Positions 14,593 through 21,854 of a DNA stretch of 23,276 bases are shown here, one piece after another; position 1 is the stretch's first letter, and every line of letters begins with the position of its first letter. Both the position numbers and the translations under genes were made by a program. The notes beneath the pieces are model-generated. The model was not told the origin of the DNA, searched no databases, and saw only the letters and a list, made by a program, of their open reading frames with translations. The stretch comes from Candidatus Aenigmatarchaeota archaeon (GTDB taxonomy: Archaea > Aenigmatarchaeota > Aenigmatarchaeia > CG10238-14 > WAMV01), in contig WAMV01000010.1 in assembly GCA_015522145.1 (NCBI GenBank), positions 1 through 23,276 on the forward strand. The letters are read 5' to 3'.

Positions 14593-15528
14593 ATGGTCTG
14601 GATGGAAACCTTTTTGTTTATTTTCTTTGCGTACACACTTTTAAAGTCCAGCCAGTATGTTCTAAAAGAAATTAGAAACATAAACAAAATAATCGGAATG
14701 GAAGAATTTTTCCTTGGGTTTATAATGCTTGCTTTAGTTTCGAATTTGCCAGATTTAAGCATAGGGATGTATTCAATATTTACAAAACACAGTGAAATAG
14801 GGGTTAGCGATGTTCTTGGTTCAGTAGTTACAGACATTTTGCTAGCTACAGGTCTTGTTTTTATTTTTGCTAACATCAAAAAGCTCGGTAAAGAAGTCAA
14901 AACCCTTACGAAAATGCTTTTCGCAACAGCTTTGCTGCCCGTGCTTTTTTTGTTAAGCATGCCTAACATCTTGCTAAGCCTTATACTCTTCTTAACATTT
15001 TTGTATTTTAACAAGTCTGCGTTAAAAGTTTACAAAATGAAAAAACAAAAAGGTAGAAATAGACTAAAAATCACAGGAAAGTTTGCTAAAAGTTTATTCA
15101 TCTTAGGTATATCAACCTTCCTTACAATAATCTCATCTAAGCTTGTTGTAGAATACGCTTTACAGATAATCAATTTTATCAATGTTAGCGATGTTTTTAT
15201 GGGAGGGGTAGCTATAGCTTTATCAACAAGCTTGCCAGAGATAAGTATAGCTCTACATTCCATCAAAAGACCTAAAACGGCTTTAGGCACGGTTACAGGA
15301 GCATCTCTAGTTAATTTAACTTTGGTCTTGTCTATATTACTTTTATTTACTCCTTTAGATTTAGGAGCAGAAATTGCACCTCTTATAGTTTTTTGTATAT
15401 TTTCAGCTGGGATAGTTTATTTTTTGATAGAATTGGGATTTATGGGTAGAGCGCAAGGAATATTACTTTTAATTTTATATTTGGTGTATGTTTACTTTAT
15501 TTTTAGTGGGAATGCGCCGGTGGTCTAG
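14593..15528 (+). CDS. Cation/Ca2+ exchanger (CaCA, Na+/Ca2+ antiporter family)
   Basis: About 10 TM helices with two alpha repeats, SNLPD and STSLPE. Start at the ATG at 14593 or 14602. The 3' end overlaps tRNA-Gly. Confidence 0.85.
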   Translation: MVWMETFLFIFFAYTLLKSSQYVLKEIRNINKIIGMEEFFLGFIMLALVSNLPDLSIGMYSIFTKHSEIGVSDVLGSVVTDILLATGLVFIFANIKKLGKEVKTLTKMLFATALLPVLFLLSMPNILLSLILFLTFLYFNKSALKVYKMKKQKGRNRLKITGKFAKSLFILGISTFLTIISSKLVVEYALQIINFINVSDVFMGGVAIALSTSLPEISIALHSIKRPKTALGTVTGASLVNLTLVLSILLLFTPLDLGAEIAPLIVFCIFSAGIVYFLIELGFMGRAQGILLLILYLVYVYFIFSGNAPVV

Positions 15529-15639
15529 CCTGGTAGGACATCGGCCTTCCAATGCTGACAGCCGCTAACTGATTAATGAGGAATAAAAAGCCCTCTAAGA
15601 AGAGAGCCGAGGGCCCGGGTTCAAATCCCGGCCGGCGCA
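15514..15639 (+). tRNA. tRNA-Gly(TCC) with a 53-nt intron at 37/38 (15552-15604)
   Basis: Acceptor GCGCCGG/CCGGCGC+A; anticodon stem TCGGC/GCCGA; loop CT-TCC-A|A; T arm CCGGG-TTCAAAT-CCCGG. Intron GAAG pairs with CTTC (positions 32-35) as the central helix of the splice motif. Confidence 0.92.
15552..15604 (+). ncRNA. Putative intron-encoded box C/D sRNA (tRNA-Gly intron)
   Basis: ATGCTGA - 10 nt - CTGA - tta - ATGAGGA - 12 nt - CTAA, matching C/D'/C'/D order and spacing; the terminal boxes are degenerate. Confidence 0.55.
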
Positions 15640-17768: not shown

Positions 17769-17885
17769 TGCCCCCAGCGGGATTTGAACCCGCGTTTCCG
17801 GCTTTCTTCTTATCATCCGAATGTCAAACCTTTCGCTATGATAAGCGAAAGGCCGGCGTCCTTGGCCGGGCTAGACGATGGGGGC
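17769..17885 (-). tRNA. tRNA-Glu(TTC) with a 42-nt intron at 37/38 (17804-17845)
   Basis: Acceptor GCCCCCA/TGGGGGC+A; anticodon stem CCGGC/GCCGG; loop CT-TTC-G|A. Canonical bulge-helix-bulge: CTTT/GAAG, two 3-nt bulges and TTATCAT/ATGATAA. Confidence 0.95.
17804..17845 (-). ncRNA. Putative minimal intron-encoded box C/D guide for U34 of its own pre-tRNA-Glu
   Basis: Guide AGCGAAAGGT, then D-like TTGA, 7 nt, then C-like ATGATAA. The guide is complementary to GCCTTTCGCT, and the +5 rule lands on U34. Confidence 0.7.
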
Positions 17886-19433: not shown

Positions 19434-21854
19434 ATGGAACTAAAAGAAAAGTTAAAGCTAAGGAAATTAATAAAAGAGCTTAAATCATACAAAGGAAGAC
19501 ATACGGAATTAGTTAGTGTATATATTCCTTCTGGCTATAATCTTGTCGACGCAGTTAACATGCTTAGGACAGAAGTTTCTACAGCCCAAAACATCAAATC
19601 CAAAACTACACGCAAGAATGTTGTTGAAGCGTTAGAGAAAATATTGCAGCATCTTAAGCTGTTTCGTGAAACCCCACCAAATGGCTTGGTAGTTTTTGCC
19701 GGCAACGTTTCACAAGAAGAAGGCAAACCAGATGTTAGGGTTTGGTCTATTGAGCCACCAGAGCCATTGAGAACAAAACTTTATTGGTGTGACCAAGTTT
19801 TTGTTACTGAGCCACTAGAAGAAATGTTAGAGGAAAAGGACAATTATGGTTTAATAGTTATGGATGGAAGTGAAGCTATCATAGGCGTGCTAAGCGGTAA
19901 ATCTATAAAGAAACTAAAAAGAATTGAAAGCTTGGCACCTAGCAAATCAGTTAAAGGTGGTATGTGTGTATGCGAAGACACACTTATTCAGCTTTCCGAC
20001 GGAAACATAATACCAATTAAAAACTTAATAAACGGTCAAAAAATCTTGTCCTATTCCCTGAAAGATATGAAACCAACATATGTTGATCATTTTGAGATTT
20101 TCAAAAGAAGGGCTAGAGTTGCGTATAAGCTTATATTTAAGTATCCCAGCTTACAACTAACCTTGACCCCAGAACACATAGTTTTTGTAGTAACAGAAAA
20201 TGGAATAGAAGAAAAAAGTGTGGAAGAACTAAGACCTGGTGATAAATTATTAATGGTTTTTGATATAAAGGTTAAAGGAAAAACTACAAATAAAAGTGGT
20301 AAGTTCTATCAATTGCTGGGCTACATTACAGGAGACGGAACCTTTGATAACAACAGAATAATTTTTTACGATAAAGATAAAGAGCTGCTGGAATTTTATG
20401 CTAAAATAGCTGAAACAACTTTAGGCAAAAAGCCAAAAATTTTGAAAAGGAGAAATGCTTATGAAGCCAGAATTTATAGCAAAGAAATAGCAAGCAAAAT
20501 TTCAAAAAAATATAAGGAAGTTGCTAAACTTAGTAGAGAAAGAGATATATCAGAGGAGATTTTGAAACTTCCTAATTATAAACTGAAGTTTTACTTGAGA
20601 GGCATCTTTGATGCAGAAGGTTATATAGATAAGAAAAGTATAGGTATGAGATTATCTAGTGAAATTTTAGCTAAAAAGCTTCATCTATTATTGCTAAGAT
20701 TTGGAATAGTAAGTAGCTTAAGAGGTCCAGATAAGCTTGGTAGGCTTGAGTTAAGAATAACAAACCCAATCATGATTAAGAGATTCTACCAAAACATTGG
20801 TTTTAGTAGTAAGAAAAAAATGAAAAAACTACATGAATTGCTAAGAAAGCATAAAATGAGCTATTCATTTAAAGCTCCAGTTAACGGATTGTTGGTAAGA
20901 AAAATAATTGAAGAAATGGGCTTAAAGAAGGAGGACATTAAAAAATACAGCATGTTTTTATCCGGTAAGAGAAGCATTTCATATCCAATATTTAAGAAAC
21001 TAGTAAAAGAAGTTGAAAGAAAAGCAAGAAGCAAGAAATACTTATCTTTGCTAAAGAGGATGCTTAATTCAAAACTAATCTCAATTACTTTATACCAGAA
21101 GCTGAAAATAAAAACCAGTAAAAGGTTTTACGATTTGTACATCCCCTCCACAAACAGTTTTATTGCACAAGGTATACTAGTTCATAATTCACAAAGACGT
21201 TATGATAGAATTAGAGAACAGGCTCTGATAGAGTACTATAGAAAAGTTGGGGAAATTGCTTCTAAACTATTTTTGGATTTGCCTAATTTGAAAGGTGTAA
21301 TAATAGGTGGGCCAGGTCCGATTAAAGAAAGATTTTATGAAGGAGATTATCTTGATCATAGAATAAGAGAAAAAGTTTTAGGTGTTAAAAGCGTTGGTTA
21401 CGTTAATGAATATGGGTTAGAGGAATTAGTTAAGAGAAGTGAAGATTTAATCCAAGAAGCTGAAATAATGAAAGAAAGAAAACTACTTCAGCAATTCTTT
21501 GCAAACATTCATAAGAAAGGCGAGAAAATCGTTTATGGTTTGGAAGATACTTTGAAAGCTTTAGAAATTGGTGCTCTAGACACAATAATGATTTCTGAAG
21601 ATTTTGATTATGTTAAGAGAAAAATAAAGAAAAATGGTAAGGAAGAAGTGGTTTATCAAAGAGAGAACGAAAGCTATGAAGGCGAACTAATAGAGGAAAC
21701 AGATTTATTGGAAGAAATAGAAAAGCTAGCTAAACAGTTTGGAACTAAAATCGAGTTCATATCAGACTCTACAAATGAAGGAAGACAATTTAAGAATCTT
21801 GGAGGAATTGGTGGTTTACTAAGGTATAGAATCAAAGACTTACAGGCAAGCTAA
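19434..21854 (+). CDS. prf1: Peptide chain release factor aRF1, intein-containing (398-aa extein)
   Basis: GRHTELVSVYIP, NIKS, YWCDQVF, GPGPIK and GGIGGLLRY; the GGQ position reads GGM. Confidence 0.96.
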   Translation: MELKEKLKLRKLIKELKSYKGRHTELVSVYIPSGYNLVDAVNMLRTEVSTAQNIKSKTTRKNVVEALEKILQHLKLFRETPPNGLVVFAGNVSQEEGKPDVRVWSIEPPEPLRTKLYWCDQVFVTEPLEEMLEEKDNYGLIVMDGSEAIIGVLSGKSIKKLKRIESLAPSKSVKGGMCVCEDTLIQLSDGNIIPIKNLINGQKILSYSLKDMKPTYVDHFEIFKRRARVAYKLIFKYPSLQLTLTPEHIVFVVTENGIEEKSVEELRPGDKLLMVFDIKVKGKTTNKSGKFYQLLGYITGDGTFDNNRIIFYDKDKELLEFYAKIAETTLGKKPKILKRRNAYEARIYSKEIASKISKKYKEVAKLSRERDISEEILKLPNYKLKFYLRGIFDAEGYIDKKSIGMRLSSEILAKKLHLLLLRFGIVSSLRGPDKLGRLELRITNPIMIKRFYQNIGFSSKKKMKKLHELLRKHKMSYSFKAPVNGLLVRKIIEEMGLKKEDIKKYSMFLSGKRSISYPIFKKLVKEVERKARSKKYLSLLKRMLNSKLISITLYQKLKIKTSKRFYDLYIPSTNSFIAQGILVHNSQRRYDRIREQALIEYYRKVGEIASKLFLDLPNLKGVIIGGPGPIKERFYEGDYLDHRIREKVLGVKSVGYVNEYGLEELVKRSEDLIQEAEIMKERKLLQQFFANIHKKGEKIVYGLEDTLKALEIGALDTIMISEDFDYVKRKIKKNGKEEVVYQRENESYEGELIEETDLLEEIEKLAKQFGTKIEFISDSTNEGRQFKNLGGIGGLLRYRIKDLQAS
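19965..21188 (+). mobile_element. Intein (408 aa) with a LAGLIDADG homing endonuclease
   Basis: N-terminal CVCEDT, block B TPEH, endonuclease blocks LLGYITGDG and YLRGIFDAEG, block F FYDL, and C-terminal VHN followed by Ser. Confidence 0.95.

Follow-up and report, generated by a model that had tools for sequence, protein, structure and literature searches.

An important question raised by the tRNA-Glu(UUC) gene of this Candidatus Aenigmatarchaeota archaeon is whether its 42-nt intron, inserted at position 37/38, has a role before it is removed. The gene occupies positions 17885-17769, minus strand, of the window, by which we mean the whole analyzed stretch of 23,276 nucleotides. A preliminary description had read the intron as a minimal guide RNA aimed at the wobble uridine, U34, of its own tRNA. 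We conclude, at a probability of about 70%, that the intron is a one-kink-turn guide that would fold as a hairpin onto its own precursor and direct 2'-O-methylation of U34 (Um34) before splicing. The same figure applies to the broader form of this conclusion, in which the intron functions like a box C/D guide and belongs to a family of one-kink-turn, probably cis-acting guides for wobble ribose methylation.

The gene was missed both by ARAGORN without introns and by Rfam at the gathering score; over the whole window, Rfam at that score gave three tRNA matches only and no match to an sRNA family. ARAGORN with introns at a low threshold returned mostly noise, and a search on the T-arm and acceptor was used instead. 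A sigma-70 promoter scan, a type unsuited to archaea, yielded nothing useful. The intron lies at the canonical archaeal 37/38 site and carries a canonical BHB splice motif: a 4-bp central helix (CUUU/GAAG, four of four pairs) between two 3-nt bulges, with an outer helix of seven pairs (UUAUCAU/AUGAUAA). In the anticodon loop, C32 is at 17851, U34 at 17849, and G37 at 17846. The features, all on the minus strand, are as follows.

17846..17885, minus strand: 5' exon, tRNA-Glu(UUC) positions 1-37; U34 is 17849
17804..17845, minus strand: intron, 42 nt, canonical 37/38 site; the exon junction is identical in the intronless Glu(CUC) paralog
17769..17803, minus strand: 3' exon, A38 to the discriminator; A38 is 17803
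17844..17853, minus strand: guide target, G30-G37 and the first two intron bases, from the pairing table
17838..17844, minus strand: 5' strand of the BHB outer helix, TTATCAT, which is the hairpin loop in the guide fold
17828..17837, minus strand: antisense guide AGCGAAAGGT; A17832, fifth nucleotide upstream of the D-like box, is the partner of U34
17824..17827, minus strand: D-like box TTGA, directly 3' of the guide
17817..17823, minus strand: 7-nt spacer, predicted to form a C-G pair closing a 4-nt loop and then a kink bulge G-A-U (3 nt)
17810..17816, minus strand: C-like box ATGATAA, which doubles as the 3' strand of the BHB outer helix
17806..17809, minus strand: 3' strand of the BHB central helix, GAAG, pairing with C32-U35 (17851-17848), four of four pairs

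By sequence, the elements thus run in the order target, loop, guide, D-like box, spacer, C-like box. The guide AGCGAAAGGT (17837-17828) forms nine Watson-Crick pairs and a G30-U pair with the target GCCTTTCGCT (17853-17844); two of the nine involve intron bases. U34 stands opposite the fifth nucleotide before the D-like box, as in archaeal box C/D sRNAs, and the two boxes, degenerate but covarying in the family described below, correspond to the kink-turn or kink-loop of boxes C and D. The positions and motifs given in the preliminary description (antisense guide, TTGA, 7-nt spacer, ATGATAA) all hold, as does its placement of the fifth nucleotide against U34. The nine pairs are contiguous, a length that only 14 of the 108 guides of the family reach; the credibility threshold for C/D guides is about 9 or more contiguous Watson-Crick pairs (PMC6009581). 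The intron does not have the standard two-motif architecture (C/D plus C'/D', with two guides): its 42 nt contain one RTGA and one YYGA in register, which makes it a variant of the box C/D guide rather than a standard member. Nor is it of the pre-tRNA-Trp type (tRNA-Trp host, C34 and U39 as targets), since the host is tRNA-Glu and the single guide addresses position 34. Antisense to positions 32-36 arose in 29,386 of 200,000 dinucleotide shuffles of the intron, antisense together with a YYGA box at +5 in 766, and the full layout, with RTGA downstream, in 78.

The layout recurs in intron sets that were not selected for it. It was found, with pairs at 32-36 required, in 6 of 12 canonical introns of the source genome (G000, a partial assembly of 323 kb; other G and L numbers are relatives' genomes and loci), in 7 of 15 from G038, and in 6 of 19 from G027; shuffles predict 0.06, 0.03, and 0.07 introns per genome, respectively. 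The 12 introns of the source genome came from the T-arm search; for G038 all 52 T-loop matches were fetched, and for G027 most of 74, with a few unlikely ones omitted. The six guide-bearing introns of the source genome are those of Glu-UUC, Lys-UUU, Arg-UCU, Leu-CAA, Met-CAU, and Trp-CCA.

Over all fetched loci, 148 introns were parsed (4 genes were dropped as unclear, 6 were left unparsed, and 10 anticodons were set by hand; L072, misparsed, was excluded from the pairing table). At least 5 nt of antisense covering nucleotide 34 occurs in 110, and the remaining 38 have no such antisense. A YYGA box stands at exactly +5 in 108 of the 110, and at offsets 1-4 or 6-8 in none, a pooled ratio that is inflated because 57 of these guides came from a pattern, AG-N-W-YTGA, that preset part of the register (RTGA was not demanded) and 23 from BLAST with the Glu gene; the unselected sets, which supplied 20 (the other 8 were by-catch), therefore carry the test. 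The relatives are, further, non-independent samples.

Nine tRNA types host such guides: Glu-UUC, Lys-UUU, Gln-UUG, Arg-UCU, Leu-UAA, Leu-CAA, Met-CAU, Trp-CCA, and one Gly-UCC. Position 34 is a pyrimidine in every one, and all except Gly read split codon boxes. When guides and tRNAs of the three genomes were cross-matched, the best fit of each guide was its own tRNA, with two ties (Leu-CAA in G038, Gln in G027). From one tRNA type to another, the guide changes together with positions 34-36, and a pair at position 31 is present in 95 of the 108, with three pair types. A half guide with +5 at U34 is also present in the 5' leader of tRNA-Ser(UGA), in the source genome (G000:C7:45419-45437) and in G027 (L158). 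The preliminary description had proposed an independent, single-kink version in tRNA-Glu. The single motif stands; the notion of a lone invention in tRNA-Glu does not, given nine tRNA types and a 5' leader, and independence from the euryarchaeal tRNA-Trp guide is not established, because Trp is among the hosts. Outside these counts, tRNA-Leu(CAA) in L108 and L109 (G013 and G031; 1612, minus strand) has the guide and boxes with apparently non-canonical intron boundaries and was excluded. The tRNA-Ile(UAU) introns (G000:C13:77, G000:C7:79568, L008, L150, L168) have no guide; the two source-genome copies differ at a single base, have the same upstream flank close to the ends of contigs, and may reflect overlap in the assembly.

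Among Glu(UUC) introns, 27 of 29 parsed keep the guide and D-like box in the +5 register, a proportion biased upward since most were found by BLAST with this gene. Loss of guide and boxes from relatives that keep the splice motif, which would have told against the proposal, is thus not what this set displays. The orthologs retain guide and boxes across intron lengths of 22 to 43 nt, the shortest being L026. A Glu-specific pattern matched in 94 of 371 genomes of the phylum, against 10 matches for a reversed-pattern control. Of these genomes 82 were kept (7 with CTTTCA matches only, 4 whose matches were not tRNA, and 1 unchecked were removed). The tRNA gene was inspected in 44 of the 82: 26 were parsed, and 18, of 20 fetched from other orders, were examined by eye.

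The boxes behave as a paired unit. The D-like box is TTGA in 74 of the 108, CTGA in 29, TCGA in 4, and CCGA in 1, and RTGA follows it within the intron in 107. The first base of the D-like box and the sixth of the C-like box (D1:C6) pair in 104 of 107: C-G in 28, T-A in 68, and T-G in 8, with 3 mismatches. The C-G and T-A types both occur inside single genomes. The compensatory C-G to T-A departure from consensus that had been noticed in the Glu intron is, on these counts, a family-wide covariation. The U-U pair of the consensus boxes (D2:C5) is retained in only 43 of 107, which weighs against our reading. The base preceding the D-like box is Watson-Crick paired to position 30 in just 4 of the 108. 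Of the 72 spacers of at least 6 nt, 51 have a 3-nt bulge closed by a Watson-Crick pair; the corresponding counts for 2-, 4-, and 5-nt bulges are 13, 36, and 24. A stem at the 3-nt-bulge register is the geometry of a kink-turn. In other orders, G-C predominates as the bulge-closing pair and is joined by a further C-G pair (7 of 8 loci passing the T-arm filter). The tRNA-Trp gene of the source genome (G000:C11:6085, plus strand, L089) is the exception without an intronic C-like box beside its guide. It has two introns, with guide and D-like box in the 37/38 intron; by eye, the C-like box lies in the upstream intron, probably at 25/26, where a 4-bp closing stem with the end of the guide intron is possible. 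The kink-turn of this single case would then span two introns.

Several known systems resemble this one in part. One is the euryarchaeal pre-tRNA-Trp intron (Haloferax volcanii; Pyrococcus sR50), which guides Cm34 and Um39 (PMC7994747, PMC11408192, PMC4090602); there too, the guide for position 34 is encoded in a 37/38 intron of the tRNA that it targets, and the target lies within the BHB central helix. The Trp intron is longer (median 65 nt), has two target sites, and reportedly works in trans, whereas the Glu intron has 42 nt, a single guide, and a single box pair in which D precedes C, a design found in nine tRNA types. Reviews of 2014, 2021, and 2024 present the tRNA-Trp intron as the self-guiding archaeal example (PMC4090602, PMC7994747, PMC11408192). 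The 66-nt intron of elongator tRNA-Met in Nanoarchaeum equitans, a stable RNA for which a C/D guide function was proposed (Randau 2012, PMC3491384), likewise comes from a DPANN tRNA and has a single box D and a single deviant box C; compared by description, it may be a member of the half-guide family. The available portion of that account (PMC3491384) mentions no target, self-targeting, or family. Free-standing archaeal C/D sRNAs have been predicted to act at tRNA position 34 (Leu, Met, and Trp in Pyrococcus; sR26, sR27, sR45, and sR46 in Pyrobaculum; Gln U34 in S. acidocaldarius). They share the target position and predicted chemistry, but are separate trans-acting genes rather than embedded in the target. 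In the open literature searched, we found no published account of a half-guide family beyond the two-motif Trp intron and the suggested Nanoarchaeum Met intron; the supplements of surveys might bear on novelty.

The feasibility of a single motif is indicated by work on a synthetic hemi box C/D RNA whose target was tethered by a GAAA loop. This RNA is reported to bind L7Ae (Kd 12 nM), to recruit Nop5-fibrillarin, and to be methylated (Hardin and Batey 2006, PMC1635284). It resembles the introns in having one C/D motif, one guide, and a target on a short tether. The same report furnishes the main objection to our reading, for synthetic single-motif complexes lose site specificity in vitro, and the two-motif architecture is called absolutely conserved in natural complexes (PMC1635284). 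The hemi RNP is artificial and site-nonspecific, whereas the introns, as known from sequence, resemble hemi-guides of natural origin whose +5 register is fixed.

The proposed course of events is as follows. In the nascent pre-tRNA, the guide would form a hairpin with positions 31-37; L7Ae would bind the kink of the two boxes and recruit Nop5-fibrillarin; and fibrillarin would methylate the 2'-O of U34. After release, positions 32-35 and the C-like box would re-pair as the BHB motif, and the endonuclease would excise the intron. The second kink-turn that precision requires in vitro could, speculatively, come from a second precursor or from another guide on the Nop5 dimer. The product has precedent, as Um34, s2Um34, and Cm34 are reported from archaeal tRNAs (Wolff 2020, PMC7668247). 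Genes for L7Ae and the splicing endonuclease are present in the source genome, and fibrillarin and Nop5 each occur in 59 of 60 relatives. Neither of the latter two was found in the 323-kb partial assembly, a point against our reading; a weak match to fibrillarin there (27.9 bits over 44 positions) was not counted.

Guide and splice folds are mutually exclusive throughout the family, since the guide duplex and the BHB central helix both draw on positions 32-35. The preliminary description had noted the exclusivity through the C-like box as a strand of the splice helix; that much is sound, and the C-like box overlaps a BHB helix in 96 of the 108, complete 7-bp capture of the box being the extreme of this Glu intron. 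That the two folds act as a regulated switch that times splicing is conjecture. It was further claimed that pairing across the exon-intron junction makes the guide specific to the precursor. Two of the pairs here do involve intron bases, but as a general source of specificity such pairing must be rejected, since only 31 of the 108 guides reach into the intron. In ViennaRNA, which has no kink-turn or BHB terms, the guide hairpin dominates (pair probability of nucleotide 34 above 0.5) in 80 of the 108. A point against our reading is that the naked Glu RNA favors a splice-like fold (-23.9 vs -19.4 kcal/mol for the guide fold), with a pair probability of 0.0005 for U34, so its guide state must be protein-driven; the 4.5 kcal/mol gap is probably within reach of the nanomolar binding reported for L7Ae (Kd 12 nM, PMC1635284).

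Does the guide act on the molecule that carries it? An excised, probably circular, intron or another precursor molecule could instead guide Um34 in trans on a different tRNA molecule. We regard this as unlikely, even though the only intronic guide that has been tested, that of pre-tRNA-Trp, is reported to act in just this way (PMC7994747, PMC11408192, PMC4090602), which also counts against our own reading. Excision would release positions 32-35 from competition, the Nanoarchaeum Met intron is described as a stable and abundant RNA (PMC3491384), and the nine contiguous pairs of the Glu intron reach the usual credibility threshold (PMC6009581). Yet two of those nine lie with intron bases, and the contiguous duplexes of the family are mostly shorter: 5-6 bp in 63 of the 108 and 5-7 bp in 82, less than a free guide would need. 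The loops span 3-17 nt. Further, each guide sits in its matching tRNA, which trans action does not require, and the leader-borne Ser(UGA) half guide also remains attached to its target. Such short guides suit a tethered hairpin, which points to cis action.

Alternatively, the element could bind L7Ae without methylating anything, serving to gate splicing or to check folding by keeping the BHB motif hidden, or positioning another anticodon-modifying enzyme. The exclusivity of the two folds and the box overlap in 96 of the 108 would suit such a device. There is also a reported parallel in mammalian intronic kink-loop RNAs that suppress intron excision in cis (bioRxiv 10.64898/2026.08.03.742641), and single-motif complexes are described as imprecise methylases in vitro (PMC1635284). 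A gate has no need of a fixed register, however, and the +5 distance to nucleotide 34 is invariant. The element is restricted to tRNAs with a pyrimidine at 34, and its Ser(UGA) version lies in a 5' leader, away from any splice site that box pairing could mask. This explanation, too, we judge improbable.

It is very unlikely that the family is functional while the Glu copy is in decay, its 7-bp outer helix holding it in the splice fold. Its guide-pair probability of 0.0005, against values above 0.5 in 80 of the 108, suggests as much, but its elements are all intact, its guide is among the longest, and, among the rows listed, three other Glu orthologs (L003, L019, and L022) have comparably low values. 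The energy gap, moreover, is one that L7Ae could probably bridge. That the element arose by chance, or as a side effect when an inverted duplication of the anticodon loop gave rise to the intron, is scarcely credible: antisense alone is frequent in shuffles, but the full layout is not, duplication explains neither the boxes nor their covariation, and 38 other introns lack such antisense altogether.

If the introns are self-guiding methylation devices, as we propose, what might Um34 provide? A rigid wobble ribose may keep the split-box tRNAs on purine-ending codons, and a possible further role would be as a stand-in for wobble thiolation where NcsA is absent. The 2-thiouridine at position 34 is reported on Glu, Gln, and Lys tRNAs (PMC7025502), and its archaeal maker is described as NcsA (PMC10067955). 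In the order of the source genome, none of 118 genomes combines the Glu guide with an NcsA-like gene; 58 have the guide only, 24 NcsA only, and 36 neither. NcsA-like genes were called with NF047749 at E of at most 1e-45, a threshold of our own (no protein reached the curated cut-off), and the comparison had been redone with this model because TIGR00269 alone mixes TtuA-like proteins with NcsA. Two counts tell against a strict rule: outside this order, 11 of 24 guide genomes also carry NcsA, and 129 of 371 genomes across the phylum have neither. In one family (f4), NcsA-like genes are present in 22 of 23 genomes and Elp3 in 18 of 18. Its 10 parsed guides are all of C34 types, as compared with 55 of 92 of U34 types in other families, and its eight inspected Glu(UUC) genes have no guide. 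Loss of Elp3 was considered as the guide's partner and fits less well, since genus g5, G011, and G060 have both Elp3 and the Glu guide. That guided Um34 substitutes for lost NcsA thiolation is a tentative proposal, drawn from a pattern of few lineages counted without a tree, and we lean somewhat against it.

Other tRNA introns near this family appear to hold C/D RNAs of fuller form. As no 16S rRNA was found in the partial source assembly, their rRNA targets were sought on relatives' rRNA only. In the window, tRNA-Gly(UCC) (15514-15639, plus strand) has a 53-nt intron (15552-15604) that resembles a complete two-motif C/D RNA but does not target its own tRNA. Its boxes, on the same strand, are:

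15552-15558, plus strand: C-like box
15569-15572, plus strand: CTGA
15576-15582, plus strand: C'-like box

The second guide of this intron has a 9-nt match to the 16S rRNA of G004 and G010; no target was found for the first in relatives' rRNA. The tRNA-Ser(UGA) intron is a full C/D RNA in the source genome (G000:C7:45452, plus strand, L090), G008 (L006), and G038 (L142). Its D' guide matches 16S helix 44 at a site that is also predicted in other archaea and that we take to be about E. coli A1408; guide and rRNA change together in genus g5. By eye, the second guide in the source genome and G008 is a complement of the 3' end of 16S rRNA. In G015, the 16S rRNA gene carries an insertion close to its 3' end (L097:3320-3430), probably an intron, which contains a C/D RNA with the two guides of the Ser(UGA) intron in the source genome and G008, which suggests that guides move between rRNA and tRNA introns.

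The tRNA-Thr(UGU) intron (G000:C11:3258, plus strand, L092) has a guide with a 10-nt match to 23S rRNA helix 69 in 4 of 4 relatives, at what is presumably about E. coli C1920, followed by CTGA and ATGAAGA. That of tRNA-Ser(GGA) (G000:C7:1907, minus strand, L091) contains the box pair ATGAAGA/CAGA twice, which makes it a symmetric C/D RNA outside the consensus; it has no convincing target in relatives' rRNA. The Ser(CGA) introns of L111 and L143 also resemble full C/D RNAs. Elsewhere in the window, 19434-21854 (plus strand) encodes release factor aRF1, of 806 aa, with an intein-like insertion; the long form is found in several relatives. Of the labelled relatives of this gene, most belong to Candidatus Aenigmatarchaeota.

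In its most far-reaching form, our proposal would hold that reduced Aenigmatarchaeota genomes modify the wobble position through an RNA-encoded system with a half guide in each split-box tRNA, that natural one-kink-turn complexes, unlike synthetic ones, are precise to a single base, that methylation precedes and gates splicing, and that self-guided Um34 (in Glu, Lys, and Gln) replaced NcsA-made 2-thiouridine where the enzyme was lost. We consider that combination doubtful. In three genomes, roughly one third to one half of the canonical introns nevertheless appear to be self-guiding, which offers a testable reason for their retention. The pattern of NcsA, for its part, suggests that RNA-guided ribose methylation may replace a lost wobble enzyme in minimal cells.
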